This document shows, one piece after another, positions 5,428 to 63,814 of a DNA stretch of 64,000 nt. This DNA comes from Anolis carolinensis. Its lineage: Eukaryota. The stretch lies in the NCBI RefSeq assembly GCF_035594765.1, contig NC_085843.1, positions 25,497,955-25,561,954 on the forward strand, written 5' to 3'. Below the pieces are notes generated by a model, which was not told the origin of the DNA, did no database searches, and worked only from the letters and a program-made list of their open reading frames with translations. Every line of letters starts with the position of its first letter. Position 1 is the stretch's first letter. A program made the position numbers and the translations under genes.

Positions 5428-5598
5428 CTTAATAGAAAAACCATACGCATATCCTTGAGGGCATAGCACCACATCACCCCAGGTGCCCCACGCTCCTCCA
5501 TTTGGCACAGTGATAACAGAACTATGCTGCCGGGCTTCAGACATCCAGAGGCAGTGGATGAGGATCAAGGATTGCACAGCTCTGACCCAGAGGACCAT
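5428..5598 (-). CDS. VMO1: VMO1-like paralog A, coding exon 1 (signal peptide plus first beta-prism strands); exons 2-3 not in window
   Basis: 57 codons MVLWV...ITVPNGGAWGTWGDVVLCPQGYAYGFSIK, same length as exon 1 of B, C and E; donor AAG|GTGTTT. Confidence 0.85.
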
Positions 5599-5859
5599 TT
5601 TAAGTCTTTGGTTCTAGAAACAAGAACATTTGGGGAGAAGAACAGCCTTGAGAATGTGCTAAATACCATATTTTCTTAAATGTGTGTTTCATTGTAACAG
5701 ATTTGAGATTTTAAAAATAGCTTAGATATTCTCCAGCAAATTATAGATACTGATACTCAAAATACATACAAATTGGAGACCAAGATGCCATCAGTGGTTT
5801 TTTTTACTGTTTTATAGTTTTCCTGTTGTTTTGCAAACAGCAACTTCCTCCCCCAATAT

Positions 5860-8130
5860 TATAGACCCAGACCCTGACCAGATTCGTCCCTATTGAGCCC
5901 CAGAACTAAAGCCACAGCGAATTGGTGTATCAGGAGGGCCTTTTAGACCAGATTAGCCCTGCAGATTAATGTGTGTGGCCCCAGAAGGATTCTCTTTTAA
6001 GGATTATCTCCTGGAACATTGCTGGTTGGGCAAATAAAAGTGGGGATTGTTATTTTAGTAAATATATTTCCGCCTTCGATGTGATCCTGCTGCAGGAAAC
6101 ATGGGCAAATTATACTATTGTTTTAAATGGTTTTGCCACCTATTCCTTGAATGCTAGTCAGGTAAGCAAAAAAGGACGTGCTTGGGAAGGCCTTGCTGTT
6201 CTGGTTTCAACATTATCTGTGTAAGAGACTTTCTTTCCTTTTGGAGTCAAATAATATAATTAATGAGGCACAAGCAGCATTTAGAAAGAACTATTCCACT
6301 ATTGATCATTGCTTAGTGCTCTCTCATCTTGCTGAGAAACACATCAGATTGCTACAGGGTAAGCTGTTTGTGGCCTTCTAGAAAACAGCATTTGACTCCA
6401 ACTCCAAAAATAAATTATGGGAAAAATTGAACATGACTTTGAATGATAAAAGACTTCTAGGCCTTATTAAGGCCCTGTATAGTGACAGCATACTACACAT
6501 CAGATGTGCAACCTGGGATAACACATATTCATCTGTCTAAAGGGGTCAGACAGGGCTACATCTTGCTCCCACCTTTTTAAACATATTCATTAATAATCTG
6601 GAAGAAGTTCTATTGGACCCCAGTGTTCATTTGCACAAGCTCAGAACAAGAAGTCCCTTGTTGTTCTATGCTGATGATGGTGCTATCATCTCACACTCCA
6701 GGGCAGGACTAAGTTACCTACTAAGGAAATTCCTAAATTATTGCTCATCGAATGTCCTAAAAATCAATCACAGGAAATCTAAAGTTCTGGTTTTTGAGGA
6801 AAAAATTCCCCATGCCACCGGTCCCTTGATGGGCATCCTTTAGAACAGGTTAGAAGCTTCCCATATCTGGGGCTGCTTTTCCATCACACTTTGTCCTGGT
6901 TCACTCATATATCTTCTATTTCCCTGAAAGCACAAGTAAGCAGATTTTGTGTTTTAGCTTTGCCAAGGGGTGTTGGTATATACCATTTTCTATTAAAGTT
7001 TTTAACTCCAAGATAGCTACCCAGCTGCTGTATGCTTCCAGCATCTGGATTGGTGGCCTAACATTTAGGATAGATAGGCAAGCACCATTTTTGAGGGCTT
7101 TCTACCAGTTCCACAGATGTATGTTATCCTGTGTCTTACTACTAGAATCCAGGGAAATCCCCCTGTCAGCTAGAGTTTGGAGGTCGGCCCTTAAATATTG
7201 GCTTAAGGTCAATGTTTTCTGTTTGGGCTCGGGTCTAAGTCTCAGCTATCCCCAACAAGCTGACCCGTTCACACCGTGCCAGTTAATTGGAATGGGAGTA
7301 CAGGAATGGCTTTGATGATAAGGGCCATCTGGTTTGGGAGGGAACCATCATCTATCTGGGAATGGAATGTTAGCACTTAGGTGTAGTGTAGAAGGGGGAC
7401 CATGGGGGGGTGGTTTTGATATACTAGTGTTTTGGCGGGATTTAGTCAGAAGTAGCTTCTTTTTCAACTTGGTAAGAAGGATCAATAAAGTGTTTCCAAG
7501 GATTTGCCTGTGTGAGCCTGCTTTGTATACAAGAACTTCTAAGAACTGACAGGATGAGTACACTAGTAGCTGGTTTAAGCTTAATTCTAAAAAGCCTATT
7601 CTATTGGCCTTTCTTTGCCCCTCTTAACTCACATGGGTTTCAACATGGCACTTCAATCTATTAAATAAAGATTGTGGGACACTGCCTTCTGTGAGCTGCA
7701 CTCTCGCTCATATGTTTCTTGTTCCCCAAGAGCCCTGTGTATACACTATGCTGGGTCTCTCCATGAAGCAAATTTTCTTAAGAACTTCACTGTGTCCAAA
7801 TATTGTTGCCTATTCTCCAAGGCAAGATGTATTGTATTCTCATCTAAATTGCTTTGAGATAGATTTGTTAGAGTCCCAAATAATGCAAGACTTTGCCCAT
7901 GCAATAACCAGGAAGTTGAATGTATGTATCACATCTTATTGTTCTGCAGTTTTTACAAACAGGCCTGATTATATATTATTAGCCCACTACTGAGAAACTT
8001 ACTGGGTAGATCAGCCCAATTCCACGTAAAGTTTTTATTAGGAGATAATCTCTCCCACATGACCTTGGCTGGTGACAAGTTTATCTCCGAGATAGCCAGG
8101 ATCATACAATTTCCTGTATTAGACTCAGGC
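5860..8130 (+). mobile_element. Old degenerate LINE ORF2 (APE endonuclease, RT, C-terminal Zn knuckle), probably RTE-X clade
   Basis: IISWNIAGW and ILLQETW (APE); QAAFRKNYSTIDH and LFYADD (RT); RLCPC...HILLFC near 7890-7950; many stops and deletions; boundaries approximate. Confidence 0.7.
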
Positions 8131-8434
8131 TGAAACTTTCCCTGTATTAATTTGCAGTGTTTTCACTCTTGTTCATATGCATCTTGTATAGCATGTTGTA
8201 CTGCATTTTAATCAGTTTTATCAGTTTATTAATATGTCTGCACTTTGTGCACCTTTTACTGCTGAGTCAATTGGGTATTTGGATTGATTGATTGACTGAC
8301 ATTTACATAGATTTATACACAGCAATACTTTCCTACCTTTACTTTACAATCTGAGACCTATTGCTGGGTCTCTTCCTCTTTAGTCGTACTCCCTTTGAAT
8401 CTTGTTTTTCTGAAATTATCCCAAAGGAGACATA

Positions 8435-9073
8435 CCGTGTTTCCCCGAAAATAAGACATCCCCATAAAATAAGACCTAGTAGAGATTTGGGGGAGTTGTC
8501 TAATATAAGACACCCCCTGAAAGTAAAACCTAGGAAGAGGGAGCCGAAAAAGGGAAGGTGCGGCTTCCCCAGCGGCGATGGGAAGGCAAAGGAGGAGCCC
8601 TCCTTCACTTTCCCCAGTGGCGGTGGCCTCCTTCGCCGCCAGGGAAGGAGAGGAGGGAGCCCTTCTTCTCCTTCCCAGGCGGCAGCGGCAGCAGCCCCCT
8701 TCACCGCCCGGGAAGGAGAAGGACGAGCCCTTCTTCTCCTTCCCAGGCGGCGATGGCTCTCTCTTTCGCCGCCCGGGAAGGAGAGGAGGGAGCCCTTCTT
8801 CTCCTTCCCAGGCGGCGGTGATGGCGATGGCCCCCTTTGCCGCCCATGAAGGAGGAGCCCTTCTTCTCCTTCTCGGCTGGCGATGGCTCTCTTTCACCGA
8901 GAAAGGTAAAGGAGAAGAGGGAAAGGCGCACGCCTTTCGCTCCTTCTCCTGCACACTGCAGCCGTGGTGGAGGAGAAGAGAGTGAAATAAGGCCTCCCCT
9001 GAAAGTAAGACCTAGCGTGTCTTTAGAGCCAAAAAATAATATAAGACAGTGTCTTATTTTAGGGGAAACACGG
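8435..9073. mobile_element. Non-autonomous Tc1/mariner-type DNA transposon with an internal GC-rich minisatellite
   Basis: TIRs CCGTGTTTCCCCGAAAATAAGAC and GTCTTATTTTAGGGGAAACACGG; TA on both flanks; about five ~62-bp units at 8570-8890. Confidence 0.85.
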
Positions 9074-9130
9074 TACCTTAGTTTGAAAAACAACACAGAT
9101 TTGCTGACCTTTCTAACTACAATTTTGTTT

Positions 9131-11150: not shown

Positions 11151-11198
<48 letters not shown>

Positions 11199-14588: not shown

Positions 14589-14638
<50 letters not shown>

Positions 14639-42113: not shown

Positions 42114-42174
42114 TTCGCAGTGCTGTTCCTTTTCAGTTAGGTTTCTGCATCTAGACTCAAAAGTATTTGGTACA

Positions 42175-44832: not shown

Positions 44833-45610
44833 TGCTGCTCTGCTGCTGCTCATTTGTTTAGTCGTCTCCGACTCTTCATGACCTCCTGGACCAGTCCACA
44901 CCAGAGCTCCCTGTCGGCCGTCACTGCCCCCAGTTCCTTCAAGGTCAAGCCAGTCACTTCAAGGATACCGTCCATCCATCTTGCCCTTGGTGGGCCTCTC
45001 TTCCTTTTTCCTTCCATTTTCCCCAGCATCGTGATCTTTTCCAAGCTTTCTTGTCTCCTCATGATGTGGCCAAAATACTTCAGCTTTGCCTCTAATATCC
45101 TTCCCTCCAGTGAACAGCCGGGCATTATTTCCTGGAGGATGGACTGGTTGGATCTTCTTTTGGTCCAAGGCACTCTCAGGATTTTCCTCCAGCACCAGAG
45201 TTCAAAAGTGTCTATCTTCCTTCGCTCAGCCTTCCTTATGGTCCAGCTCTCGCAGCCATAGGTTACTATGGGGAATACCATTGCTTTGACTATGCGGACC
45301 TTCGTTGCCAGTGTGATGTCTCTGCTTTTCACTATTTTGTCAAGGTTGGCCATTGCTCTCCTCCCAAGAAGTAAACGTCTTCTGATTTCCTGGCTGCAGT
45401 CTGCATCTGCAGTGATCTTTGCACCTAGAAATATCAAGTCTGTCACTGCCTCCACGTTTTCTCCCTCTATTTGCCAGTTATCAATAGGTGTCATTGCCAT
45501 GATCTTGGTTTTCTTGACGTTTAACTGCAACCCAGCTTTTGCACTTTCTTCTTTCACCTTGGTGATAAGGCTCCTCCTCAGCTCTTCCTCACTTTCGGCC
45601 ATCAGAGTGG
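44833..45610 (-). mobile_element. BovB-like RTE LINE, 5'-truncated (left edge of duplication copy 2)
   Basis: Open ORF 44850-45602 with BovB motifs; same 5' junction as the 38443 copy. Confidence 0.9.
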
Positions 45611-47106
45611 TATGCTTAGTGTGGTTTTAGAGGAAGTGGTGAAAAAATGCTACTTTATCTTAGTAGTGATGTATGTTGCACCAATTAGGCTGTATCTGGA
45701 TTGGTCATTGAAGGTAAATTAGTCTTGATATACAAGTCTCAATCACTGACACACATATCTCCAAGGAAATTCTGGTGTGGGGCAGAAAACAATCTAATTC
45801 ATGTCACCCTTTCAACCTCATGCCTTGTTTGAGATGAGGAGATAACCTGCTAATTTATCTTAAAACTATGCCACGTAGTACATAGGAGGAAGAAATGTTA
45901 TGAGAGACAGGCTGGAGTGGGAGACTAGCCACAGGAGAAACAAACAGGAAAGAACTGGTTGGAGTGGAGAGAATGAAAACTGCTTGCACACACATAAAGA
46001 ACGAGAAAAGCAAGAAACGCAAGAAGAGATAAACAGCCGGTTTGACTGTAGAGTCCTTAAACACTTCCCAGATGTTTTTATTTATGTGTTGTACTTCAAA
46101 AGCAAACAGACAATATAACCTTTTGACAATTGAGATTTCAATTTTTTTCTGGATGGAACTGGTGTGCAACCTGGGAGTGCTCTTAGATCTGATGTGCTCC
46201 CAAATTGTTATGTGGTCAGCTTCCTCTGTCTTTATAAGGTACTTTCTACTAAAGGCAGAGTAATTCTTCTTTTAATAACGAACAATGAGTTTCTCATGTT
46301 CTTGAATTTTAAGAATTTGAGCCTTTAAGCTCATTCCTGCAGACCCAGTAATTAGAAAACCAGTTGTGCCTTTTGTAGAGGTTGCTTTATTGGTTCACTG
46401 GGCGGTAAAGACTCACGGCACACAAGCAAATTGAGAGCCCCTAACATCAGAGCATTATAGCTTATATGCATTTTTTTATCTTCATCATGGGCAATCACTC
46501 GTGGCTGAGTATGATTGCATTCCAAGGTTAGAATCTTGGTGGTGGCTCTGTAAGTGACTGTGAAGACCCATTCTGGATCTACTAGTCTTTCACATTGAGG
46601 ACATAGTTTTCCAGACTGAGAGCAGCCACAATTTGCTTAATGTGCCTTCCTCTTGACATGTTTCTTCCTTTCACCCTGTATTCGATCTTCGAAATGCATA
46701 GCACCATTGGTAACAGCCAACCTCCAGTTTCAATGCTCAAGTGCCAAGGCTTCCAGTTCTTGGTGTTTATATCAAAAAAAATTTAGGTTAGCTTTAAGCC
46801 CATCGTTAAATCTCTTTTGTTGTCCGTTTTTCATTCTTGAGTTGAGACTAGAGTAACTGCTTTGGGAGACAGTGATCGGGCATTTGAACAACATGGCCAG
46901 TCCAGCGAAGTTTATGGTGGAGAATCATCACTTCAGTGATACTGGTTTTTGCTCCTTCCAGAATGCTGGCATTTGTCCACCTGTCTTCCCAAGAAATGTG
47001 CAGGATTTTTCAGAGGCCACAGTGATGGTATCTTTCCAGAGATTGAGAGTGATGGGGTTGTTGTATGTCTTTCGGGCTGTGTGGCCATGTTCCAGAAGTA
47101 TTCTCT

Positions 47107-47147
47107 CCTGACGTTTCGCCCACATCTATGGCAGGCATCCTCAGAGG
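47107..47147 (-). ncRNA. Minimal hammerhead ribozyme motif, intact
   Basis: CCU-CUGAGGA-U-GCCUGC...GUGGGC-GAAA-CG-UC-AGG. Confidence 0.8.
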
Positions 47148-48037
47148 TTGTGAGGTATGGATAAACTAAGTAAGGAAAGGAAATAATATATATCTGTGTA
47201 GAGTCCAAGGTGTGGCAAGAGTTCTTTGTCACTGGGAGCCAGCATTAATGTTTCAGTTAATCACCCTAATTGGCAATGGAAATGTTTTGTCCCTTGCCTG
47301 GGGGCATCCTTTGTTCAGTCAAGTCCTCATTGTGTTGGTTCCCATCTACTGTTTTGATTTTGGAGTTTTGTAATACTGGTAGCCAGATTTTGTTTATTTT
47401 CATGGTTTCTTCCTTTCTGTTGAAGTTGTCCACATGCTTGTGGATTTCAATGGCTTCTCTGTGTAGTCTGACATGATAGTTGTTAGAATGGTCCAGCATT
47501 TTTGTGTTCTCAAATAGTATCCGGTGTCCAGGCTGGTTTATCAAATGCTCTGCTATGGCTGATTTCTCTGGTTGAATTAGTCTGCAGTGCCTTTCATGTT
47601 CTTTGACTCTTGTTTGGGCGCTGCGTTTGGTGGTCCCTATGTATACTTGTCCACAGCTGCATGGTATCCGGTAGACTCCTGCAGAAGAGAGAGGATCCCT
47701 CTTGTCCTTCGCTGACCGTAGCATTTGTTGGATTTTCTTTGTGGGTCTGTAGATAGTTTGTAGGTTGTGCTTCTTCATCACTTTGCCTATGCGGTCAGTA
47801 GTTCCCTTGATGTATGGTAAGAACACCTTTCCTCTGGGTGGATCTTTGTCTTGACTCTCATGGCTTGTTCTTGGCCTTGCAGCTCTTCTGATATCTGTGG
47901 TGGAGTATCCATTGGCCTGTAGAGCCCAGTTTAGGTGGTTGAGTTCACCTTGGAGGAGGTGAGGTTCGCAGATTCTTTGTGCATGGTCTATCAGGGCTTT
48001 GATTGATTTGATTACTTAGTTTATCCATACCTCACAA

Positions 48038-48078
48038 CCTCTGAGGATGCCTGCCATAGATGTGGGCGAAACGTCAGG
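48038..48078 (+). ncRNA. Minimal hammerhead ribozyme motif, intact
   Basis: Same motif in the inverted pLTR; predicted cleavage after C48075. Confidence 0.8.
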
Positions 48079-49609
48079 AGAGAATACTTCTGGAACATGG
48101 CCACACAGCCCGAAAGACATACAACAACCCTGTGATCCTGGCCATGAAAGCCTTCGACAACACATTGAGAGTGATGTTTATAGATGATCCATGTTTCACA
48201 GACATATAGTATGGTTGGAAGGACAATAGCTTTATAAATATACATCTTGATATCCCTATAAATGTCCTAATTCTCAAGCACTCAATGCTTAATTTGAAAT
48301 AATGCTACACTCACAGAGCTTAGACAGTGGTGCATGTTGGCATCAATGCCAACTTTTGTGGGAAAGTGGCAGCCTAGGTTAACATTTTTGAGCATTACAC
48401 CATTAAGCTGTATTCTTGACGTTGCAGAGGGATTGAGTTGTGCCTGCTGGTAGAGCACTTTGGTTTTTTAATATCAAGTGATGTTAAGTCCCATTCTTAG
48501 GACACTTCTATGGGCTGCTTTTGTTCTCAATCCCCATTCTTAAAACGCACCCCATCGGAATGCCCCTCAAAACACAACAGTGCAACAACAAAATGGGGCG
48601 GGCAAGTTAGACACTTCCCTTCCCACGTGTTTTCTACGGGTTTTCCTCTTCAGAGGACGCTTCTGCTACATTTCAAGGGCAGGGAGCTATGTATGATGGC
48701 CGGAAGTGCTTAAACATCATGTGATGAGCTCCATGCCTCTCTGTGCTTGAAAAGCTGCTCAAGTGTCCTACAATGGGGAAACTTCTCCATGTGATCAAAC
48801 TATATTATCATCACCATACTGGAGTTCTATAACAAAAGTTATTGTTACTTTACTTTTGGTTTTCAGCCTGCTGAGGTTAAAGAGCTTGCAGTCAGTTTGA
48901 GAGGGGATTTCCACACCGGTGGGAAGTTTCCTGTCAACAAGATATGGAATCATAATGATAAAGATATACATGAGCATTTGAAGCAATGGCGCAACCCTGC
49001 TTGGCACCTGATCTCACTTTAAATTGATTACTTTGGGAACCATTGCCATCCAAGACTGTTGCCATCATGTCATTATGGAGGAACCACAGGATGCTCATAA
49101 ATTTATCAGGATATCCCATTTTTAAGACGATAGTTCAGAGAGCATTATGATTCACAACGTCAAAGGTGAATGAATGCCATGTACAAAGGTTGATTTTGTC
49201 CCCTACATTTCTCTTGGAGCTATTTTGCAGTGAAAATCATATCCACTGTTCCTCCAAAGGGGCAGAAGCCATTTTTGGGATTCAGGGAGGATTTCTTCTG
49301 AAACAGGTAGAAGGCGGTTTGCAAGGATTCTTGCAAGGGTTTCTGACAAAATTTGGAATTCCCCTTTTTACCCATATTTGCTTGTTTCCTGTTTCACCCC
49401 CATGCATCCCTTATATGGGTAAGTTTTTCAATGTGTGGTAATTTGTTTCTTTGGTTTATTACCCAACTTATCTTCTAGCCTAGGATAAAGATTCTTGCTC
49501 CATCATTTGGAAAACTAAATGTCTCGTTGTAGCAATTCTCCCTTAGAGCACAGTCCTAGGAATTTCCATATTTCACAATGTTCTTAAAGAATTTCTTGGT
49601 TTGCGGATG

Positions 49610-49638
49610 TGAGTCAGTTCAAATACCTGGCCTATAAA
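49610..49638 (+). promoter_or_regulatory. Paralog D core promoter: AP-1 plus TATA
   Basis: TGAGTCA at 49610-49616; TATAAA at 49633-49638, ~60 bp before the ATG. Confidence 0.65.
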
Positions 49639-49699
49639 TTCGCAGTGCTGTTCCTTTTCAGTTAGGTTTCTGCATCTAGACTCAAAAGTATTTGGTACA

Positions 49700-49876
49700 A
49701 TGTACAGAATGTTCTCTATCAGTACTCTGCTCCTCCTGATCCTTTCCTGTTGCCTCTGGGACGCAGATGCCCGAGCCTATAATTCTGTTATTGAGGTGCC
49801 AAATGGAGGCCCTTGGGGTATATGGGGAAACATTCATCTTTGCCCCTATGGGTATGCCAAAGGTTTCTCATTAAAG
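49700..49876 (+). CDS. VMO1: VMO1-like paralog D, exon 1
   Basis: [24 protein letters not shown]...[13 protein letters not shown]...[12 protein letters not shown]; donor AAG|GTAAGT. Confidence 0.93.
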
Positions 49877-50133
49877 GTAAGTTTCTTTTCCTTTTCAGAC
49901 ACTGTACTGATGCCTCCAAGCAATTTAGAATGCAACTTTAAGCACCCTAGCCAACATGGCAGTCATGTATCATGAGTGTTGTGGTCCCAGATATCTGGAG
50001 AGCACCAGGTTAGGAAAATTTGATCTAATGGCACAGATCTCATATTTGGTACAGAGAAAGCCCATGCAACTGAAAAGGAGAGGGTGTTGCTCCTAACAAA
50101 ATTGTGGTGGGGTAGGAAAGGTACAGTGAGCCA

Positions 50134-50164
<31 letters not shown>

Positions 50165-50207
50165 TGTGTGTTGATATCTCTGCAGACAAAATGCATGCTG
50201 AAGCATA

Positions 50208-50566
50208 GGTAAAGGTTTTCCCCTGACGTTAAGTCCAGTCATGTCTGACTCTGGGGGTTGGTGCTCATCTCCATTTCTAAGCCGAAGAGCCGGCGTTGTG
50301 CATTCACTTCAGTTCCTAGGTATGGTTCTTATATCGTCCCAGCCTCCATCCAAGGTCATGTGGCCGGCACGACTGCATGGAGCGCTGTTACCTTCCCGCC
50401 AGAGGATCTATTGATCTACTCACATTGGCATGTTTTCGAACTGCTAGGTTGGCAGAAGCTGGACTAACAGTGGCCGCTCATGCCGCTCCCAGAGTTTGAA
50501 CCTGGGACTTTCGGTCTGCAAGTTCAGCAGCTCAGTGCTTTAACATACTTCGGCACCGGCACTCCT
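50208..50566 (-). mobile_element. Sauria SINE (duplicate of 42680) carrying a templated insertion
   Basis: Same TSD ATGCTGAAGCATA; foreign segment at 50302-50348. Confidence 0.9.
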
Positions 50567-50892
50567 ATGCTGAAGCATACAATAAGTCAAAAACAACACA
50601 TTAAGAAACCTCACCAGTAAGTTCAGAAAAAGTCAAATAATGCACTGCATCTGATTAAAGTATAGCCTATGCAGGGCTCAAATCCAGATATGCTTTGATT
50701 GTCTGCAGTTCATTGGTGTATCTCAGTGAACTGGTTAAAAAAATACTCTGTATTTTCTGGTGACTGTTTAGCCCCATTGCCAGGTACAGTTCCTAGGTAT
50801 GATTTGCATTCACTTCAGTTCCTAGGTATGGTTCTTATATCGTCCCAGCCTCCATCCAGTTCCTGAGATGTCGATGTACAGTGAAGCCAGCT

Positions 50893-51365
50893 CATAGAAT
50901 CATGGAATTGGAGGGAGTACAAAGGTCATTCAGTCCATCCTCTTGCCATGCAAGAAAACACAATCAAAGCACTCCAGGCAGATGCCATCTAGCATCTGCT
51001 TTAAAACCTCCAGAGAAGGAGACTCCTCCACCCTGCAAGGCAGCATATTCCTATATCAAACTGCTCTTGCAATCAGGAAGTTTTTTTAATGTTTAAATTG
51101 GATCTTTTTTTCCCCTGCGATTTGAGTCCATTGCTCCATGTCCTAGTCTCCAGATGAAAAGATGATGTGACATTTCAGATATTGAAACATGGCTATCATA
51201 TCTCCTCTGGGCCTTCTTTTCTCCAAGCGAAATATACTCAGCTCACTCAACTGTTTCTCATAGGGTTTCATTTCCAGTCTTGGTCCCCCTTCTCTGGATA
51301 TGTTCTAACTTGTCAATATATTTCTTGACTTGCGGTGCCCAAAAATGGACACAGTATTCTAGATG
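50893..51365 (-). mobile_element. Older CR1 3' fragment
   Basis: [12 protein letters not shown] motif; CATAGAATCAT tail. Confidence 0.75.
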
Positions 51366-51561
51366 AAATCTATGATTTCGTTCAATCACAACGCTACTCT
51401 CTGATTGATGCAGTTTATAATCATTTTCATCCACTTCCAAATTGGAATATAGTGTCTGTGTAGAACTGTATTTGGTCTCAATTCATGGAGAAATATGCAC
51501 AGTGTGGCAGTTCTAGATTTATCCAGTTTCACAAAAGTCTCTTTCTCTTTTTCTCCGCCAG

Positions 51562-51656
51562 GTGGAACCCGGTCAAGGTAAAGGGGATGACACAGCCTTG
51601 AATGGAATACGCCTATATTGTAATGATGGAACAATAATAGAGTCAAAAGTTGGAGC
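51562..51656 (+). CDS. VMO1: VMO1-like paralog D, exon 2
   Basis: 95 bp; polypyrimidine CAG| acceptor and |GTGAGT donor; [32 protein letters not shown]. Confidence 0.94.
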
Positions 51657-52397
51657 GTGAGTATTTATCAGTTTGTTTGACCATGCTTCGCTTTCTCTTC
51701 TTCTTTGGCATTGTTGTTTGGAAGGTGATGATTGGAAAGACTAGGCAAAAATTCTTTATTTCATACCTTCCAGGTCTGGTAACAGACACAGGTGATGAAA
51801 TCTCATCAAAATGCAGTCAGTGTGGAAAAACTTATTAATGAAGAAGAAAACACAAGCTGTGAAAGTGTACAAATAATGCCAATCTGGCATGCCATGAAAG
51901 GGTCGAAAATGGTGGGACACCTAATATTACTACATGTTTACTGTCAGGGAGCAAGAAACTGCTTACAGGATGTTTTGTCTTATAGGGTAATTTGACTGAC
52001 ATCTTGTTGTGTTGTCTCAGGCAGAAAAATGTATACAGCTGGTTCTGTTTTGTACCCAGAGGAAAAGGTCAAAAGAAAAGGCAGTTGGGGGGGGGGGGGG
52101 GAGAGACAAAGAGCATTTGCCCATATTTTGGCCCTGAAATAACCCATTTCAGACTTGAAAAGCAAGGAACACCAAGTCTGTCAAGTTCTGGGAGGATGTT
52201 CCCTGGGAGAACAGTTGGAGAAAGCCATTTTTCTAGTGAGGATCAAGTGATTTAGCCCAATTCTTAACACATGTAAAGTACTGACACATGGATGAAGGAA
52301 ATATTACCTCTTAGTTATTAAAACACTTCTGTATGATTTTTATTATAGTATCTCAAGATGGCATGCAGTATAAGCAAAACACTTCTAGATTAATAGC

Positions 52398-52433
<36 letters not shown>

Positions 52434-52467
52434 TATAATAATAATAATAATAATAAATAAATAAATA

Positions 52468-52556
52468 ATCACACAGTCCTAGACACTTGGGAAGTGTTCA
52501 ACTTGTGATTTTGTGATACAAAATCCAGCATATCTATCTTGTTTGCTGTGTCATAC

Positions 52557-52610
<54 letters not shown>
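52468..52610 (+). mobile_element. Probable R4/Dong LINE 3' end embedded in (AAT)n
   Basis: Short unique 3'-UTR-like segment with (AAT)n on both sides; family recalled from memory, and Dong elements are known to target TAA repeats. Confidence 0.5.
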
Positions 52611-52611
<1 letters not shown>

Positions 52612-52612
52612 T

Positions 52613-52835
52613 ATCTTGTCGAAGGCTTTCATGGCCGGGATCACAGGGTTGTTGTATGTTTTCCGGGCTGTATGGCCATGTTCTAGAAGTATTCTCTCCT
52701 GACGTTTCGCCCACATCTATGGCAGGCATCCTCAGAGGTCGTGAGGTATGGATGCCTGCCATAGATGTGGGCGAAACATCAGGAGAGAATACTTCTAGAA
52801 CATGGCCATACAGCCCAGAAAACATACAACAACCC
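52613..52835. mobile_element. Miniature Penelope insertion (inverted pLTR ends) with an intact hammerhead on the minus strand at 52698-52738
   Basis: TTGTCGAAGG...CAACAACCC ends; ~85-bp inverted arms. Confidence 0.88.
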
Positions 52836-53182
52836 AATAATTAAATCGATCTTTATTTATACCGCCCTATCTCCTTAAGGGACTCAGAGCAGTTTCCAAC
52901 ATAGCAAGAAACCATACAACAGCTTAAAACCATACAGCATAGTACAATAGTACAATAATGAACATAAATAAAACAAGACATACAAATCAATCAATTAACA
53001 CAGAATAAGGACTAATGTCAAAATACTTCATCAAGGGCCGAGATACAGAGGCCAGAGTTAATAAATAATTTAAAAGAGATATAAACACATACATTTTCAA
53101 TGTGTTGAAAAGGGAAAAAGGGAAAAAATAAAGCCCTCCAAATATTGTTGGAATGTGATCCCAGCCGCATAAGTAAGTAAGA

Positions 53183-53668
53183 TTTATTTATTTATTTATT
53201 TACAGTATTTATATTCCGCCCTTCTCACCCCGAAGGGGACTCAGGGCGGATCACATTATGTACATATAGGGCAAACATTCAATGCCCATAAAACACATCG
53301 AACCGAGACAGAGACAACAGACAGACAGACGCAGAGGCAATTTAACCTTTTCCTGAGGGGATGTTCGATTCTGGCCACAGGGGGGAGCAGCTGCTTCATC
53401 ATCCACTCTGATGGCACTTCCTCACTTCCTCATTCCAACGTTGTAAATTAGTTAAACTTGCCTCCCCACTTTTATAAGTGGTACCTTATTTCCTACTTGA
53501 TAGATGCAACTATCTTTCGGGTTGCTAGGTCAGCAACGAGCAGGGGCTATATTTTATTTTTAATTAACGGGTGCTCACCCCGCCATGGGCTGGCCTCGAA
53601 CTCATGACCTCATGGTCAGAGTGATTTATTGCAGTAGCTGTTTACCAGCCTGCGCCACAACCCGGCCT
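53183..53668 (-). mobile_element. tRNA-head SINE with an L2-type 3' stem-loop and (TAAA)n tail (Anolis SINE2-like)
   Basis: A/B-box-like head at ~53590-53668; tail resembles the L2 3' ends in this window. Confidence 0.7.
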
Positions 53669-53981
53669 AGATGTCTCATTTTACTTTGCTCTGGTAACAG
53701 ATATTTTAGGTAATATTACTGTCTTAATCTGTCTGAAGATATTATTTCTGTATGCGTTTGAATGATAGGCTGTGACCAACACTTAGTACATCAGCAAAAG
53801 CCTTCCCTTTGTCTCAGGCTTGGAACAGAACCTTCAGGTTCTTGAATGACCCTGAACTGGTGACCCTACAAGGGAATAAACCCCAATCCTGATGCAGTCC
53901 AATCTTCCTTCAAATATTGAGGCTCTAAACTGTTCAGAACTTAGATTTGTTTGTTTAGAATTCATTTGTTTTCTTTGGCAG

Positions 53982-54276
53982 ATGGGGAGCTTGGACGGCG
54001 ATTCAATATTGCCCCCAAGGCAATCTGGTCTCTTTCTCTTTGAAAATGGAAGGACTCCAAGGGAAGGATGACGATACGACAGCCAATAGCCTCCAGTGCA
54101 CCTGCGAAGATGGGACTGCACTTATTGGGCATGGAGGACCCTGGGGTCAGTTTGGCCCATGGAGCCCTCGCTGCTCTCATGGCTCCATCTGTGGAATCCA
54201 GACAAGGGTGGAGGATCCCCAAGGGAAGGGTGATGACACGTCCCTTAATGATGTGAAGTTCTTCTGCTGCAGCTAA
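53982..54276 (+). CDS. VMO1: VMO1-like paralog D, exon 3 (terminal); full protein 188 aa
   Basis: CAG| acceptor; [13 protein letters not shown]...[11 protein letters not shown]...[15 protein letters not shown]-stop; 295 bp. Confidence 0.93.
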
Positions 54277-55329
54277 ACCAGAGCCATTTCCCTACCAAGA
54301 ATTGGTCATCTTTTCATCAATATCGAGTGCTGTGAGAACCAGCAATGGTGTACTGACTTGGGTGTTGATCTTATGTGCTCGCCGATTGTTATGTGGCCAG
54401 CTTTGTCTGTCTTTGTTAGATGCTTTGTCAGTTATTTCTCTTATCTGTAATAATTTTCTAACCAAGATGTCCTAGCAATTCATAGAGGGGGTGCAACCCT
54501 TCAGAAATCTTAGTTTAAGCCATTCTGAGCTTTATAGAAATAGTTGTGCTTGGAAACGAACTGAAAACTATTGTAGCTATTTCAAGACTGTTGACAAGCC
54601 TTTGAATAATTTGTTAGAAAATAATTCACTGCCCTTAATTCATTAAAATGATCAACATCCATTTTTTTTACATTTTTATGTCAACTATGTGAAATTTTTA
54701 GAGTAGCAATTAATGTTTCACATTACTTCATTATGTTACTTCTGGGAGTAATTTGTTGATTAGGTTTTAGTTTTCAAAAATAATGTAATAAGTTTTCAAA
54801 TATAATGTAATAATGATTAAAATAAATTACATTTCTTTTTAAAATCCCTTAACATTTTAATAACAGCCAACACATTTAATTTTAACATTAATAACCAACA
54901 CATTTAATTTTCTTAATGAATTACGTTATAACTGTGAAGTAACAATTTGCATGGCTTTTGTACCCAACTTGGTTTCAAAATGTAAAAGTGCAGCCCTACT
55001 TAGAACAAATTAAAGTAATCTAAGCTTAAAATGATGAAAGCATGAATCACGCTGCCTTCAATAATAAGCATCTCACAACGGCAGATAATCTGAGACAACA
55101 TCAGATCCAGGAGCATTCCCAGGTTGTACACCAGATCTATCCAGAAAAAGGTTGAATTCTCAGTTCCCAAAAGGTTATATTGCCTACAAATTAAAATCAT
55201 ACATATTTTGTCTACACTGAACTTTTGTTGGTGTGACCATCTGTGACATCTCACTTTATCCAGACACTAATTCAAAACTGCTGCAGCCTCCTTGGAAGCA
55301 GAGAAATTGTGTGTGTCATAATACTTGTT

Positions 55330-55787
55330 TATTCATTCAGTAGCTTCATTGACCTCATGGACCAGCCCACGCCAGAGCTTCCTGTCAGCTGTTGCCATCT
55401 CCAGCTCCTTCAAGATCAAGCCAGTCACTTCAAGGATAACATCCATCCACCTTGCCCTTAGTCGGCCCCCCCTTCCTTTTTCCTTCCATTTTCCCCAGCA
55501 TCATAATCTTCTCCAAGCTTTCCTGTCTTCTCATTTTGTAGTCAAAGTACTTCATCTTTGCCTCCAATATCCTTCCCTCCAGTGAGCAGCCTGCCATTAT
55601 TTCCTGGAGGATGGACTGGTTGGATCTTCTTGGGGTCCAAGGCACTCTCAGGATTTTCCTCCAACACCACAGTTCAAAAGCGTCTATCTTCCTTCGCTCA
55701 GCCTTCCTTATGGTCCAGCTCTCACATCCATAGGTTACTACAGGGAATGCCATTGCTTTAACTATGCGGGCCTTTGTTGCCAGTGTC
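55330..55787 (-). mobile_element. BovB-like RTE 3' fragment
   Basis: YGCESWTIRKAERRKIDAFELWCWR. Confidence 0.88.
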
Positions 55788-56128
55788 ATAATAGTAGAGT
55801 GATAAAAACTAACAGCCAAATTCTGGATGGCTTCATCCTGTGGCTTTCTAGAGATGTTTAAATATATTTGAAGTTTTCTTATGTGTTTAGAAGTCACCAC
55901 CTTCAAGATATTTTCTGTGGTCCAGGGCTATATTACTATACTGTACAATGCCCCAATCCAGGGGAAATACATTCCTGAACATATCATGGAACCATGGATA
56001 ATAGTGAACTCTAATGAAATGAATGACTTCATCCTGGGGGGGGGGGGGAGGCTAGAAAATTCCTAGAGATGTATCCTTTCTAACAATTTGTTAGATTCTC
56101 CAGGGTAATTGTAGTATAAATGCCAACA

Positions 56129-56181
<53 letters not shown>

Positions 56182-56661
56182 CTTTATTTGTACCCCTCCA
56201 CTATCTCCCCAACGGGGACTTGGGGCGGCTTACATGGGGCCATGCCCAGAACAGTACAATATAGCAAAATATAAAAACAACATAAAATACAATTAAACAA
56301 TACAATAAATAATCATGTACAGTGCAACACAAAATCATATATATATATATAACAGAAGCATGCCATAGAACTGCATGAAAGACCTAGAACATTTTTGGAG
56401 GGACATCTTTTCTTGGATGAGGTTGTGAAACTCTGGGTAATAATTCCGTGGTATGGGGGATGTACTGTATAGCAAACTGATTAAAAATTACATTGCTTCC
56501 TAATGAGTTTTAACTTGGTTGTCATGTGTCTTGGATTCCTCTATAAGGAAAGAGTATATTACACTAAGAAACATTTTGAGAGAAGCAGCTTCCACCAGAA
56601 TGAGTAAGATCAACACCAACTGTTCTTATTATGGAAGGACAATGTTTGTTATTTCTAAAAA

Positions 56662-56989
56662 AGGTAAAAGTAAAGGTTTCCCCTGATGTTAAGTCCAGTC
56701 ATGACCAACTCTGGGGGTTGGTGCTCATCTCCATTTCTAAGCCAAAGAGCCAGCGTTGTCCATAGACACCTCCAGGTCATGTGGCCAGCATGACTGCATG
56801 GAGCGCCGTTAGCTTGCCGCCGGAGTGGTACCTACTGATCTACTCACATTTGCATGTTTTCGAACTGCTAGGTTGGCAGGAGCTGGGGCTAACAGAGGGC
56901 ACTCATTCCGCTTCCGGGATTTGAACCTGGGACCTTTTGGTCCACACGTTCAGCAGCTCAGCGCTTTGACTATGCCACCGGGGGGGCCC
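56662..56989 (-). mobile_element. Sauria SINE
   Basis: Full-length match to the 42680 copy with different flanks. Confidence 0.9.
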
Positions 56990-58209
56990 TTCTATAACTA
57001 ACTAATTAAAATTAATATACCACTTTTTAATATACCTTACTTTGAAATTTTGGCACAAGGAAAATTAATTAATGTGTTTTTCGTCCCTTGATCGTTTCTA
57101 AATTCTATAATTCTATAATTCACATTCTATAATAGCTAAGACTTAGCTTGCATGTAGGATTAACCTATATTTGGCACCTCTATTTAAAATGGAAATTAAA
57201 AGTTTTGTTATCTTGAACAAAAAGATGATATATTCCCATGGACCGTTTTAGCATGGGCACATCTCTGGGAAAATCTGAACTGTAATAATCATAGCCAAAA
57301 TATTAAATCCCATAATCAAAATATGATATACAATCTGAATTCCTAAAAGTGAAAGGGTCATATTTTTTGAAATATATTCACTTCAAATGTAAGTCATTCA
57401 GTGAAATGCCTCTATGTTAAACCACTCCAGCAGTTATACCCCATTGCTCCTCCTTTAATGTTTTTATACCCTGTCTCATATAACTGACTGATATGACAGA
57501 GTAAAGTAAATCAGATCAAGACACACACATTTCTTTGAGTTCCAGGTAGAGGTGCCAATAATGGGATAAGACTGATGTCAGAAGTTAGAACGTGATTCAG
57601 CAAAATGTTTCCATATTCCTTAATCAGCCTGCATGACTTTGTCTCCATGGATGTTTCTTTAATATTTTTATTTCCTTTCATCCCTGCACATGTAGTGTAA
57701 AGTATTTCACATCAACTGTCGCACCTGACACGGAAAAAAACCAGAGATACACACTTCACATTATTCAGTGTTGTTGTGTGCCTTCAATCTATGGTGACCA
57801 CAAGGCAAATGAGGTTTTCTTGGCAGGATTTGTTTAGAGAGGATATTCTATTGCCCTTCTCTGAGGCTGAGTGTGATTTGCCTAAGGTGACCCACTGGGT
57901 TTCCATGGTCAAGAGAATTTCACCCTCTCATCTCCAAAGATCTAATCTGTCACAGACTCTGTGTGGTGTATTCAAGACACCATCACATCTCCCATGCCAT
58001 GGGTTCATAGCCAAAGTTGAGAAATGAAAACAGTGAAAACATCTTGAGCTCTGCATGGGAAAGAGCCTGACAAGACAAACTGGCTCAGACTGGAAGACCT
58101 GGAGCTGTACAGAGGAAATTGAGTGGTGAGGCTTTGGGGGTTATTAAACAGAAAACTTGCCCACATTTCATTTTGCTGTATTAAATAAATTTCCAAGATT
58201 TCATTGTGA

Positions 58210-58725
58210 GTGATTCTTATCTGTCCGAACGTGTCTCCCGCTACGACCCACCTCGAAGCTTAAGATCGTCAGATGAGGCCCTGCTCGCGGTCCTGTCAGC
58301 CTCACAGATGCGGCTGGCAGGGACGAGAGACAGGGCCTTTTCAGTGGTGGCTCTCCGCCTATGGAACGCCCTCCCCATTGAAGTCAGGCAGGCTCCCTCC
58401 CTCCTGTCTTTCCGAAAGAGGACAAAAACGTGGTTATGGGACCAGGCATTTGAGCATGAGTAGCAGCAAAAATGAGATAAGAATATATGACCTACTGACA
58501 GACCGCACATGAACATGGAAAGCGCCTTAAATGTATATTTAAATGTATAATTATGTATATTTTAATGGATATTCTTAATTTTATTGTAATTTTTAATCTT
58601 GATGGATTTTTAAATTTGATGACAACTGTTTTTAATGTGTATGGTTATACTGTAAGCCGCCCTGAGTCCCCTGATGGGTGAGAAGGGCGGGGTAGAAGTG
58701 ATGTAATAAATAAATAAATAAATAA
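58210..58725 (+). mobile_element. L2 LINE 3' fragment
   Basis: RSLRSS...RDRAFSVVA.RLWNALP; 3' stem-loop plus (TAAA)n. Confidence 0.85.
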
Positions 58726-59174
58726 TTGCTAACTGCAATCATCACATTATCCAACATCCAGACCACTACACCATGCTGGCGCTCACAGTACTCAAGTAGT
58801 CCATAAAATGTTTCTTTATTGCATTTCAACTATAGGGAACATAAACAGAGAAGAGTAATTCAAATCAGCACAGAAACATATAGCTCATCCACACAATGTG
58901 CTTATATTGCTATTATTCCATTTAAACTATAATGGTTCCATCCTATGTTCTGGAGTGCTCTGGTGAAGAATTCTAAATATAGCTCCCTAATCTATCAGTC
59001 CCAAAATTCCATAGGATGGAACCATTTCAGTTAACATGGAGTAATGAAGTTATAAATCGGTAGAGTGGAATGGACCCATAGAGACATGTACACATTACCC
59101 AGGTAAATACAAATGAATGAATGATTAATTATTCATGGGAAGAGTAACAAGTCTTAGAAGAGAAGCACTTCACA

Positions 59175-59481
59175 TCATTCAGAAGAACAGCAGAAGAACT
59201 TCACATCATTAAGGGCCGTGTCATCACCTTTCCCTTGGGGATTCTCCACCCTTGTCTGGATTCCACAGATGGAGCCATAAGGATGAGGACAGCGAGGGCT
59301 CCATGGGCCAAACTGACCCCAGCCTTCTCCATGTCCAGTGAGTGGAGTCCCATCTTCACAGGTGAACTGGACATTGTTGGATGCCGTATCATCACCTTTT
59401 CCTTGGCTTCCTTCCACCCTCTGTGAGAAAGAGACCAGATTGCCTTTGGGGCAATACTGAATTCCTGTCCAATCTCCCCAC
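59175..59481 (-). CDS. VMO1: VMO1-like paralog E, exon 3 (terminal); full protein 190 aa
   Basis: CAG| acceptor; [13 protein letters not shown]...[17 protein letters not shown]-stop; 307 bp; candidate AATAAA at 58815-58820 (-). Confidence 0.93.
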
Positions 59482-59511
59482 CTGCCAGAGAAAACAAATG
59501 ACATTAGCTAG

Positions 59512-60456
59512 CAGCATACATGGAGCATACTAACCCCCTGTTACATCTGCTCCACTGGCTGCCAGTCTGCTACTGAGCACAATTCAAAGTGCTGGCTTTA
59601 GCGTATAAAGCCCTAAACGCTTCTGGCCCAGCTTACTTGTCCGAACATATCTCCCTCTATGATTCACCTCAGAAGTTAAGATAGTCAGGGGGAGGCCCTG
59701 CTCTTGATCCCACCTCCTTCGCAGGCGCAATTAGTAGGGACAAGAGACAGGGCCTTCTCAGTGGTGGCCCCCCATCTATTGAACTCCCTCCCTAATAAAA
59801 TCAGTTTGGCACCCTCCCTCCTGTCCTTTAGGAAAAAACTCAAAACATGGCTGTGGGACCAAGCGTTTGAGCAGTAGTGACAGCAATAATTAATGAGAAT
59901 GATTTATGTGACCAACAATGGACAGACTCTGGCCTATGACTTTGAACTGGTGTAATTTTTTAAATGATATTTTATAATGGATGATTTCAACTACAGCAGA
60001 GTCTCACTTATCCAACATTCGCTTATCCAACATTCTGGATTATCCAACACATTTTTGTAGTCAATGTTTTCAATACATTGTGATATTTTGGTGCTAAATT
60101 CGTAAATACAGTAATTACTACGTAGCATTACTGCATATTGAACTATTTTTTCTATCAAATTTGTTGTATAACATGATATTTTGGTGCTTAATTTGTAAAA
60201 TCATAACCCAATTTGAAGTTTAATAGGCTTCTCCTTAATCTCTCCTTATTATCCAACATATTTGCTTATCCAACGTTCTGCCGGCCCGTTTATGTTGGAT
60301 AAGTGAGACTCTACTGTAATTGTTTTAACTGTATTTGTTTTATTATTGTTATGGTCGGCATCTAATGGTTGCCAGTTGTGAAGCCGCCCTGAATCCCCCT
60401 CCGGGGATGAGAAGGACAGGATATAAATGTATGAAGTAATAAAAATAATAATAATA
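59512..60456 (+). mobile_element. L2 LINE 3' fragment starting ~30 bp from the exon 3 acceptor of E; interrupted by a MITE
   Basis: LHWLPV...FKVLALAYKALN motifs; L2 3' stem-loop. Confidence 0.85.
59994..60316. mobile_element. Tc1/mariner MITE, copy 4
   Basis: Same TIRs; TA TSD. Confidence 0.9.
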
Positions 60457-61301
60457 GCTCAAAATGTACCAGTCTTTATTGGTTATTAATAGTTTTCCAG
60501 TCCAATTTCAAGGTGCTGGTGACAAAATCCTATACAGTTTGGGACCTTGATCCTTGATACTTGAAAGAATATTGGCCTGCTTCAGGGCTGTGAACAATCC
60601 TCTGCACGGTCACCAATTTAGGATCTTTCAAGGCCTTAAAGTTTCCATTCAAATCCCAAGACAAAGGAAAGGTTTTTGCTGATGCCATTACACAAGATGT
60701 CAATTACAAGCAGTCTCCGAGTTACAAAAATCCAACTTAAAAATCTCTCATAGTTACAAATAAGTGTGAGGCAACAGGAAATGAGAGAAATCTACCCCTA
60801 GGAAGAGAAATTCACTTCTAAAAGAGTTATCATGGGGAAAAGGTGTCTCAATGAAGTTTTATCGCCAATCCTTGTTTTTACAACAATCCAAATTTTTCAA
60901 AATCCATTATCCCAGGGATAGAAAGTGAGGTGAAACAGGGGCTCAGACAGCAAAACAAACACCACAGCAGCGTTAACCCTTCCCTGTGCTGTCCAAAGAT
61001 AGAATATATGTATTTAATGTGTGTGTGTGTGTGTCCCAATTTCCTTCCTTTTCATGGCATGCCAGATCAGCATTCCTTACACACTTTCCTAGGTTGTGCT
61101 TCTCCTTCATTAATAACCTTTTCCACACTGACTACATTGTGATGTTGTTTGGTCACCTGTGTCCTTATTTTCATCTGTGAAATGTTGAAGGATATAAGAT
61201 AAAGTATTTTATCCTAAGCTTTCTGATCATCACTTTTCAAATGATAATGCCAAAAGGAAAGCAGAAGTGAAGCATAAGCAAACAAATTGATAAATACTCA
61301 C

Positions 61302-61396
61302 GGCCCAACTTTAGACTCTATTAATGTTCCATCAGTGCAATGTAGGCGTATGCCATTCAGGGCTGTGTCATCCCCTCGACCTTGGTGGCGTTCCAC
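61302..61396 (-). CDS. VMO1: VMO1-like paralog E, exon 2
   Basis: 95 bp; CAG| acceptor and |GTGAGT donor; [32 protein letters not shown]. Confidence 0.94.
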
Positions 61397-61789
61397 CTGG
61401 TGGATGAAAAGATAAAGAGAGTATTGTAAAACTGGGTAAATCTAGAATTGCATCACTGTGCAGATTTGTCCACATTCAGAAGTACTAAGTTGGACTGGGA
61501 CCAAGCTAGCCATGCACAATCTCACTGGAATGCATGTTAAAATGTGAAAGAAGATCTAGTTTTGGCTTAAGTCTAATTTAGCACTTTGGGTGATGGATTT
61601 TAGGGACCATTCTTTTCACCTGCAATAAGACAAAGGTGTTGAATTGGACCCAATGTCAAGTTCCTATCCTATGCCATGATTTGGAAACCAGAAGGTTTGT
61701 GCCTTCCATTGACAACCCTGGAAAATCTGAATGTAGCTATCAATTTGGGAGTTTCTGTGATTGATTTTGCAGCTTCATGGCTATTTAAG

Positions 61790-61992
61790 CTTGTTAATTG
61801 CAATATTCACACTTTCTTTAAAGAGACAAGGGTTCTTTCTTCCACCCTGGACATCCCATAGATATATATACAATCCACTTGCCTCATCTCCAACAGATCT
61901 CTGAAGATGCCAGCCACAGATGCAGAAGAAACATCAAAAGATAATGGTACCGGAACATGGCCATACAGCCCAAAAAACTCACAGCAATCTAG
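61790..61992 (+). mobile_element. Old Penelope pLTR remnant with a decayed hammerhead
   Basis: CTGAAGATGCCAGCCACAGATGCAGAAGAAACATC...GAACATGGCCATACAGCCC resembles the young pLTRs. Confidence 0.7.
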
Positions 61993-62356
61993 TGAATCAG
62001 CTAAGTTCCCCAAAGAGTCTCTAACAGCCACATTGAAGTTGCTTGGCAAGACAGGGACGAGAGAGATTGAGAGAGAGATTCCTGCCGTTTTCACAGAACT
62101 AGAGAAGATTAGATCCTCACATGTTGGAAGCCTGCCTACTAAGGTTAAGCATCTAATGTGGATTTGAAGCTACATATTTCCAGTTCTTGTCTGATATTCT
62201 AACCACTATGTCACAGTGCAACATGTGGAGTTGGCTTTTATTGAGTCAAACCAATTGGTCAACATCTCAAGTCCCATCAGGATTCTCAAGAGTTTGACTG
62301 AACCTGTATATTGAGCTTAACAAGGATGCCTGGGTACTGTCCTAGGGGTTTTTGTC

Positions 62357-63178
62357 TTCCAATTCAAAATGATCTTAACAGATTAGAAAGAGAGGCCAAA
62401 ACTAACAAAATGAAGTTCAACAGGGACAAATGCTAGATACTCCACTTAGGCAGAAAAAATGAAATGCAAAGATACAGAATGGGGGGACGCCTGGCTCGGC
62501 AGCAGTATGTGTGAAAAGGATCTTGGAGTTCTCGTGGACAACAAGTTAACATGAACCAACAATGTGATGTGACGGCAAAAAAAGCCAGTGGGATTTTGGC
62601 CCACATAACTAGGAGTATAGTGTCTAGATCATTGTGTCTAGATCATTGTGTCTAGATCCTTGATCAGACCACACCTGGAATACTGTGTCCAATTCTGGGC
62701 ATCACAGTTGAAGGGAGATGTTGACAAGCTGGAATGTGTCTAGAGGAGGGCAACTAAAATAATCAAGGGTCTAGAGAACAAGCCCTATGAGGAGCAGCTG
62801 AAAGAGCTGGGCATGTTTAACCTGCAGATGAGAAGGTTAAGAGGAGACATGATAGCCAGGTATAAATATGTGAGGGAAAGTCATTGGGAGGAGGGAGCAA
62901 GCTTGTTTTCTGCTGCCCTGAAGAATAATGGCTTCAAACTACAAGAAAGGAGATTCCACCTGAACATTAGAAATAACCTCCTAACCTTGAGAGCTGTTCA
63001 GCAGTGAAACTCTCTGCCCTGGAGTGTGGTGGAGGCTCCTTCTTGGGAAGCTTTTAAGCAGAGGCTGGATGGCTATCTGCCGGGCATGCTTTGAATGCAA
63101 TTTTCCTGCTTCTTGGCAGGGAGTTGGACTGGATGGCCCACTAGGTCTCTTCCAACTCCATGATTCTATAATTCTATA
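62357..63178 (+). mobile_element. CR1 LINE 3' fragment (intron 1 of paralog E)
   Basis: Collinear with ~27850-28690; ATTCTAT tail. Confidence 0.92.
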
Positions 63179-63184
63179 ATAGCC

Positions 63185-63387
63185 TGTTGACTTATGGCAA
63201 CACCATGAATTTCAAAGGGTTTTTTTTTGCAATGACTACTCAGTGGTGGTTTTGCCTGCTCCTTCCTCTGAAATATAGCTTACAGCACCTGATATTCTTT
63301 GACAGTTTCCTACTCAAGAAGTAACCAGTTAATCCTTATCAGCTTCCAAGATCAAATAGAATCTGGTGCCATTCAAATATTTAGGTT
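63185..63387 (-). mobile_element. Degenerate 5S-rRNA-derived SINE
   Basis: 63278-63387 resembles the reverse complement of 5S rRNA (TACAGCACCTG.TATTC...TAACCAG...AGCTTCC.AGATCA) joined to a non-5S body. Confidence 0.6.
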
Positions 63388-63643
63388 ATCTCACAAGTAA
63401 TCAGTTGCCTTAATCGACCACAATGTTGTTAGAAGCATCGCCCTCTCTTTCACAATTGCATGGGCTTACCCAGTACCAAAAGAGAACTGTGCCATTAAAA
63501 CAAACTTTCCGAACCTGGTGCTCTCCAGGGACCACAACACCCATTATGCCTTATTCACTGTCATGTTTGCTACGGTGGTTAAAGTGGTATTCTAAATTAT
63601 TGGGAGGCACAAGCACGGTGTATAAAAAGGAAAAGAAACTTAC

Positions 63644-63814
63644 CTTCAATGAGAAACCATTAGCATAACCTTGGGGACAAAATTGAGCATCGCCCCAAAT
63701 ACCCCAAGGGCCTCCATTTGGCACTGCAATGATAGAATTATAGTCTCGGGCTTCTACATCCCAGAGGCAACAGGAAAGGACCAGGAAGAGCAGAGCACTG
63801 ATAGAGAGGTCCAT
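63644..63814 (-). CDS. VMO1: VMO1-like paralog E, exon 1
   Basis: [22 protein letters not shown]...[13 protein letters not shown]...[13 protein letters not shown]; donor AAG|GTAAGT; the ORF-track start at 63823 is TTG. Confidence 0.93.

Follow-up and report, generated by a model that had tools for sequence, protein, structure and literature searches.

How many VMO1 genes does a lizard keep side by side, how did they arise, and have they grown different from one another? These questions are raised by a 64,000-nucleotide stretch of the Anolis carolinensis genome (assembly GCF_035594765.1, contig NC_085843.1, positions 25,497,955 to 25,561,954 of the forward strand), which we call the window and number from its first base. 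We conclude that it holds part of a tandem VMO1 cluster in which copies have been gained and lost at several dates. The intact members are probably secreted and would bind carbohydrates in mucus, in tears, in the output of glands or on the coats of eggs, with binding surfaces that differ somewhat from copy to copy.

When the window was compared with itself, short segments that resemble one another fell into three sets. In all, it has seven copies of exon 1 and four copies each of exon 2 and exon 3. Four VMO1 genes, named B, C, E and F, are complete with three exons each; all frames are open and the proteins have 186–191 amino acids (aa). All eight of their introns run from GT to AG, with intron 1 in phase 0 and intron 2 in phase 2, and exon 2 measures 95 nucleotides (nt) in every complete gene. 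On the minus strand lie gene B (29405-29235, 23830-23736 and 19415-19121; 186 aa), gene C (35747-35562, 34238-34144 and 31828-31534; 191 aa, with a second ATG at 35732) and gene F (63814-63644, 61396-61302 and 59481-59175; 190 aa); gene E (49700-49876, 51562-51656 and 53982-54276; 188 aa) is on the plus strand, and F is its tail-to-tail inverted relative. The B, C and E proteins are identical over their whole length to P0052, P0063 and P0003, respectively, and the F protein is 90.5% identical to P0007 of A. sagrei. The genes themselves are thus already known and annotated.

The other three exon-1 copies stand alone in the window. Gene A, represented by coding exon 1 (5598-5428, minus strand), has an open frame and a GT donor, and encodes a signal-like peptide and the start of the VOMI domain; its product matches the first 57 aa of P0130, an A. 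carolinensis VMO1-like isoform X2 of 189 aa, at 100%. An exon-profile search of 1-5428 detected neither of its two further exons and, because P0130 begins with this very exon, they must lie outside the window, presumably to its left. A pyrimidine tract ending in AG stands 15 nt before the ATG of A (5614-5640, minus strand); it could be the acceptor for an upstream non-coding exon (an isoform X2 is named in the database) or plain homologous 5′ untranslated region (UTR). Exon D (42175-42351, plus strand) is a duplicated exon 1 with an open frame and promoter-like sequence upstream. At 42352 its donor reads AT instead of GT, a derived state relative to E and F; no second or third exon in the window belongs to it, and by itself it has no Pfam match. 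Pseudo-exon G (16405-16238, minus strand) has kept its ATG and GT donor, but its reading frame contains two TGA stops and it has suffered small deletions; its DNA is 48–63% identical to that of the remaining exon-1 copies. With G left out of the profile, the search found it at E = 1e-10, as against E = 8 for the best match on the reversed window, and it too is without a second and third exon in the window. The idea that G and D serve as alternative first exons on the downstream exons of A and E, respectively, is implausible for coding transcripts, given the two stops of G and the missing donor of D. No additional degraded copies of exons 2 or 3 were found in the window; the weak extra profile matches reflect internal repeats of the protein.

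A preliminary description of this locus had listed four complete genes with GT-AG sites, matching phases and open frames, exon 1 of a fifth, and a duplicated exon 1, in the orientations -,-,-,(+),+,-. All of this was recovered, with the lost donor of D as a further detail and G as a seventh exon-1 copy that had been missed. The intact-looking paralogs A, B, C, E and F (A taken as exon 1 plus the database protein) are 54–76% identical in protein, and with P0025 and P0046, which are encoded beyond the window, A. carolinensis has at least seven in total.

The assignment to VMO1, also made in that description, holds at the level of both family and fold. A, B, C and E match Pfam PF03762 (VOMI) with 162–179 bits against a curated cut-off of 25, over profile positions 1 (or 2) to 167, and exon 3 of F alone reaches 113.5 bits. 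The predicted model of E has a predicted local distance difference test score (pLDDT) of 86.3, and its best fold is chicken VMO1 (1vmo_A; E = 1.6e-20, template modelling (TM) scores 0.81/0.93, root-mean-square deviation 2.0); E is thus predicted to be a beta-prism of three Greek-key sheets like 1VMO. Chicken VMO1 shares with the anole proteins the full-length VOMI domain, 61% sequence identity (in the fold comparison with E), a mature chain of 163–168 residues, eight conserved cysteines and three Asp-Asp-Thr (DDT) repeats; it differs in that A. carolinensis has at least seven paralogs and E a ninth cysteine. The mature chains of B, C and F each have eight cysteines and that of E nine; eight cysteines would suffice for four disulfides. 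Matches between exons reveal three internal repeats, and the strongest hydrophobic 11-mer (1.95–2.91) is N-terminal in all six proteins tested, with a helix at 8-19 in the E model. After 1VMO, the next folds are jacalin-type lectins (artocarpin, banana lectin and frutapin; TM 0.5–0.57 by query). The likeness to these beta-prism I lectins is one of fold, but with 10–17% identity and no jacalin Pfam match their sugar specificity is not transferable.

When did the copies arise? Synonymous divergence (dS) is 0.8–1.2 among B, C and E/F, close to 1, and 0.27–0.35, close to 0.3, between E and F; the D and E segments have diverged by 2–3.5%. The claim that duplications of several ages are visible is therefore borne out. 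E and F, which lie tail to tail, are 78–86% identical in DNA around all three exons, an arrangement that fits an inverted duplication. The 4.7-kb segment that carries D (38441-43148, plus strand) has its counterpart at 44839-50710, at 95–96% identity by blastn and 2.1–3.5% substitutions. Its exon differs from exon 1 of E at 1 of 177 coding bases and sits in a tract of low divergence (41135-42700 against 48660-50230) that spans promoter and exon 1. Within this tract the 778 bp from 41135 to 41912 hold no substitution at all, and from 41201 to 42700 only 9 of 1487 columns differ, as against 2.7–5.9% in the flanks. At non-CpG sites the counts are 8 of 1465 in the tract and 57 of 2362 in the flanks (Fisher p = 4e-6, overstated, as the tract edges were picked after the data had been seen and substitutions are not independent). 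Judging from these alignments, gene conversion over the promoter and exon 1 of D and E is likely.

Such near identity, with one coding difference in 177 and 778 bp upstream without a substitution, could also come from an assembly artefact in part of the cluster, above all at D, if a haplotype had been duplicated or mis-joined. We consider this extremely improbable: the flanks differ by 2.7–5.9%, and an insertion of about 1.1 kb (47042-48163), which has a target-site duplication of about 13 bp, is present in the E-side copy only. The intact genes, at 54–76% identity and with separate relatives elsewhere, cannot therefore be artefacts.

Is the expansion peculiar to this lizard? A search with E returned 446 proteins at E values up to 1e-15, the best 120 of which are listed, so that copy counts, made on 90% clusters, are lower bounds. 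Among 122 aligned sequences, A. carolinensis has at least six copies (F not included) and A. sagrei at least five (from two record sets that may include alleles); Thamnophis and Erythrolamprus each have at least five, Sceloporus, Elgaria and Emydura at least four, and Hemicordylus, Pogona, Protobothrops and Pseudonaja at least three. Three Protobothrops proteins lie on equally long contigs (187,905 bases), as do two of Python (104,975) and two of Turnix (407,298), which suggests tandem arrays in these animals as well. The earlier description took VMO1 to be single-copy in chicken and human. Two VMO1 lineages exist in birds, one of 183 aa that resembles chicken 1VMO and one of 189 aa that is mostly acidic, and Turnix velox has both (P0077 and P0099). 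One record from Lerista edwardsae (P0002, 645 aa) contains several VMO1 units in one gene model, each with its own signal-like start, and probably represents tandem paralogs merged by annotation.

Two trees were built, one of 121 rows after nine fragmentary, fused, isoform or unnamed records had been dropped and one of 65 rows by quick search. The latter contains a cross-squamate clade of seven rows that includes P0046 (support 100). B is sister to Sceloporus P0015 (Shimodaira-Hasegawa-like approximate likelihood ratio test, SH-aLRT, 93), A groups with two Sceloporus proteins (91), C is sister to A. sagrei P0091 (99), and E and F likewise group with A. sagrei proteins. Side by side with these are clades limited to one lineage, namely four rows in Erythrolamprus (100), four in Emydura (99) and the five Anolis rows of E and F (95). 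A single clade for the 10 Anolis rows against 23 others, as an Anolis-only expansion would require, was rejected by the approximately unbiased (AU) test (p = 0.00017; 33 rows, quick LG+G4 tree, conserved P0046-type copy left out, run after the trees had been seen). As far as the gene trees tell, this mixture of cross-species orthologs and species-limited clades is birth-and-death turnover common to reptiles and not an anole peculiarity. Of the evolutionary claims made earlier, then, birth and death stands, with duplicates of three ages and the dead copies D and G. An expansion special to this lizard is not supported, as a turtle and numerous squamates have several copies too and the Anolis copies are scattered over more than one clade; nor do the gene trees yield one-to-one orthologs across sauropsids, the outcome that had been named as speaking against the earlier account.

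Do the copies differ in ways that matter? In each of the six gene pairs and by four methods, the whole-gene ratio of non-synonymous to synonymous divergence (dN/dS) is 0.19–0.52, and the retained copies are under purifying selection overall. Change is uneven along the protein: in the five old pairs dN is 0.48–0.66 in the loops and 0.17–0.28 in the core, a two- to three-fold difference. The same loops stand out among 61 squamate sequences (the conserved cross-squamate clade left out), where the seven residues before each DDT motif have an entropy of 2.02 bits as against 1.12 bits elsewhere (p = 1e-4) and the three DDT motifs themselves are kept in 53, 55 and 56 of the 61. The cluster had earlier been called diversifying, which is borne out as faster change in the loops but not as a dN/dS clearly above 1.

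The main rival to our reading is that turnover is largely neutral or driven by dosage: all copies do the same bulk secreted job, new ones keep arising because the locus is rich in repeats, and the fold tolerates drift in the loops and in charge. It draws on dN/dS below 1 in every whole-gene pair, on variation spread across many surface positions, and on two dead copies and many repeats within 64 kb. We nevertheless find it unlikely, since distinct paralogs have been kept for long (B and A with Sceloporus partners at 93 and 91; C, E and F with partners in A. sagrei) and since the cationic P0025 (isoelectric point, pI, 9.5) has a cationic sister in A. sagrei, P0067 (9.6).

Charge is the second property in which the copies vary. 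The computed mature pI is 4.7 for A, 5.5 for B, 5.1 for C, 5.0 for E and 5.1 for F, so that all window proteins are acidic, and over the 61 squamate sequences it ranges from 4.1 to 9.6. The cationic character of chicken VMO1 (pI listed at 10.0 in Table 1 of PMC9363672) is not found in the window proteins at pI 4.7–5.5, and P0025, encoded elsewhere, is the only cationic A. carolinensis paralog. P0025 and P0067 represent the Anolis paralog closest in charge to chicken VMO1. In section 3.1.2 of PMC9363672, VMO1 is described as having an acidic cavity suited to sugars and as binding carbohydrate and heparin, with binding reported for the chicken protein only, and chicken VMO1 as having a weak antibacterial action tied to a cationic patch. 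As the window proteins are acidic, this heparin-binding, antibacterial patch is probably absent from them.

An egg-specific adaptation, in which the copies would be made in the oviduct and serve to form or shield the vitelline membrane or the parchment eggshell, seems to us distinctly improbable on this ground, the chicken egg protein standing at pI 10.0 and the window proteins being acidic. Moreover, Thamnophis elegans has at least five copies although it is live-bearing. What favours such an adaptation is that the oviduct is the source of VMO1 in the chicken (PMC9363672) and that an expansion in a fish, the Amur ide, has been interpreted as embryo protection (PMC5854124). Other reports place VMO1 outside the egg: in tears and a snake venom gland (PMC9363672), as the third most abundant tear protein of the loggerhead turtle (PMC7412644, Table 1), among frog lip-gland proteins (PMC8613984), and as one peptide match in a pit viper venom table (PMC8635378).

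Whether the genes are transcribed can be addressed for E and F. We compared three RNA-like runs and one DNA-like run over 48200-64000, which covers these two genes; the run types are guesses, as no run containing the sequence is registered as RNA, which is evidence neither for nor against expression. The joint between exons 2 and 3 of F (1820 bases skipped, GT-AG, minus strand) is present in contigs of X7 and X8, which come from two studies and are two of the three RNA-like runs; it is not among the joints listed for the other two runs, X14 and X17, the DNA-like run included. One low-depth X14 contig spans exon 1 of E without a difference and ends at the exon end, a weak hint that E is expressed. 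How contig depth compares between E and F varies among runs; such depths cannot rank the genes and were left unused. About 518 bases (58218-58735) downstream of the F stop codon are missing from the X7, X8 and X17 contigs and are likely a polymorphic insertion. RNA-like contigs at 54184-55379, more than 1 kb past the E stop, and at 56224-59273, up to about 3 kb past the F stop, possibly represent long convergent 3′ UTRs, although the contigs carry no strand.

Upstream of several copies a short site recurs. A TGA(C/G)TCA heptamer, which we take to be a putative AP-1-type site, lies at 29490-29496 (minus strand), about 80–95 nt before the ATG of B, and at the matching place before C (35809), D (42085) and E (49610); the window has 10 heptamers of this type, and these are four of them. 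In the upstream alignment it is altered in F and none was seen in A or G, and the TATA-like box of B is degenerate. The heptamer has been maintained across lineages separated by a dS of about 1.

Taken together, these observations allow a sketch of how the cluster may work. Copies would be generated by local tandem and inverted duplication amid abundant repeats, partial copies such as D and G would die, and young neighbouring copies would swap sequence by gene conversion. In the intact members a signal peptide would export the protein, with four disulfides and the three-fold core staying fixed, and the three DDT motifs would build an acidic pocket for sugars like the one known from the chicken protein. 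The loops before these motifs and the surface charge would vary, tuning the protein to its ligand and partner, be it mucins, lysozyme or microbial glycans. The AP-1-type site near a TATA-like box would make expression of B, C and E inducible and epithelial.

Several points weigh against this account. No region has a dN/dS clearly above 1; the loops give 0.38–1.06 (21 codons, four genes), and loop variation may therefore be plain tolerance of surface loops. Just 8 of the 30 most variable sites among the 61 squamate sequences fall in the three loops, and it is in these loops that pLDDT is lowest within the mature domain of the E model (69–78). The deep tree is weak, with 13 of 62 inner branches starred and 27 open (65 rows, quick search), and the expression evidence amounts to F plus the weak hint for E. 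Even for chicken VMO1 the main function is called uncertain (PMC9363672, section 3.1.2). With these points counted, we still hold the locus to be a cluster of probably secreted, carbohydrate-binding proteins with partly different surfaces.

Eleven other long frames of the window (of 19 listed) were compared with Pfam; nine matched nothing and two are reverse transcriptase frames (RVT_1), one of 629 aa at 153-2042 on the plus strand and one of 226 aa at 2432-3112 on the minus strand, which probably belong to LINE-type elements inside an intron of gene A. Between G and A, a repeat-like element contains a G+C-rich tandem repeat with a period of about 65 (8580-8889). Rfam gave no match on the window.

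How does the cluster compare with known expansions? The closest likeness is the Amur ide (Leuciscus waleckii), a vertebrate with about eight VMO1 paralogs, reported as eight in PMC5854124, where vertebrates are otherwise said to have one or two. There the expansion was interpreted as a species-specific adaptation to alkaline water, whereas among reptiles several copies are found in lizards, in snakes and in turtles, and the anole cluster includes pseudogenes and duplicates of several ages. The literature consulted also includes PMC9957108. No description of a reptile VMO1 cluster was found in the literature searched, which covered few subscription papers and no supplements, and the reptile-wide family is apparently so far undescribed. 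Clusters of beta-defensins, C-type lectins and lysozymes resemble it in their tandem arrays, fixed cysteine scaffold, variable surface, species-limited clades and pseudogenes. For these families positive selection and defence activity are established, whereas the loops of the VMO1 cluster have a dN/dS of 0.38–1.06.

It is possible, though doubtful, that squamates have a fast-turning, undescribed repertoire of secreted VMO1 lectins, each a fixed acidic beta-prism with three pockets, hypervariable rim loops, a charge anywhere from pI 4 to 9.6 and a conserved AP-1 switch, that would recognise glycans of microbes or mucins at the surfaces of skin, eye, mouth and oviduct. The genes of the window are real, they are already annotated, their family is known and it evolves by ordinary gene-family turnover, a common mode; for this reason the surprise is modest. 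The published figure of one or two copies in vertebrates (PMC5854124) does not hold for reptiles, and seven anole paralogs that share pocket motifs and differ in loops and charge offer a direct test of VMO1 as a tunable lectin. Were the more far-reaching possibility true, reptiles would have an innate-immune receptor family under the name of an egg protein, and its members would form a natural panel of variants for identifying the ligands of VMO1.

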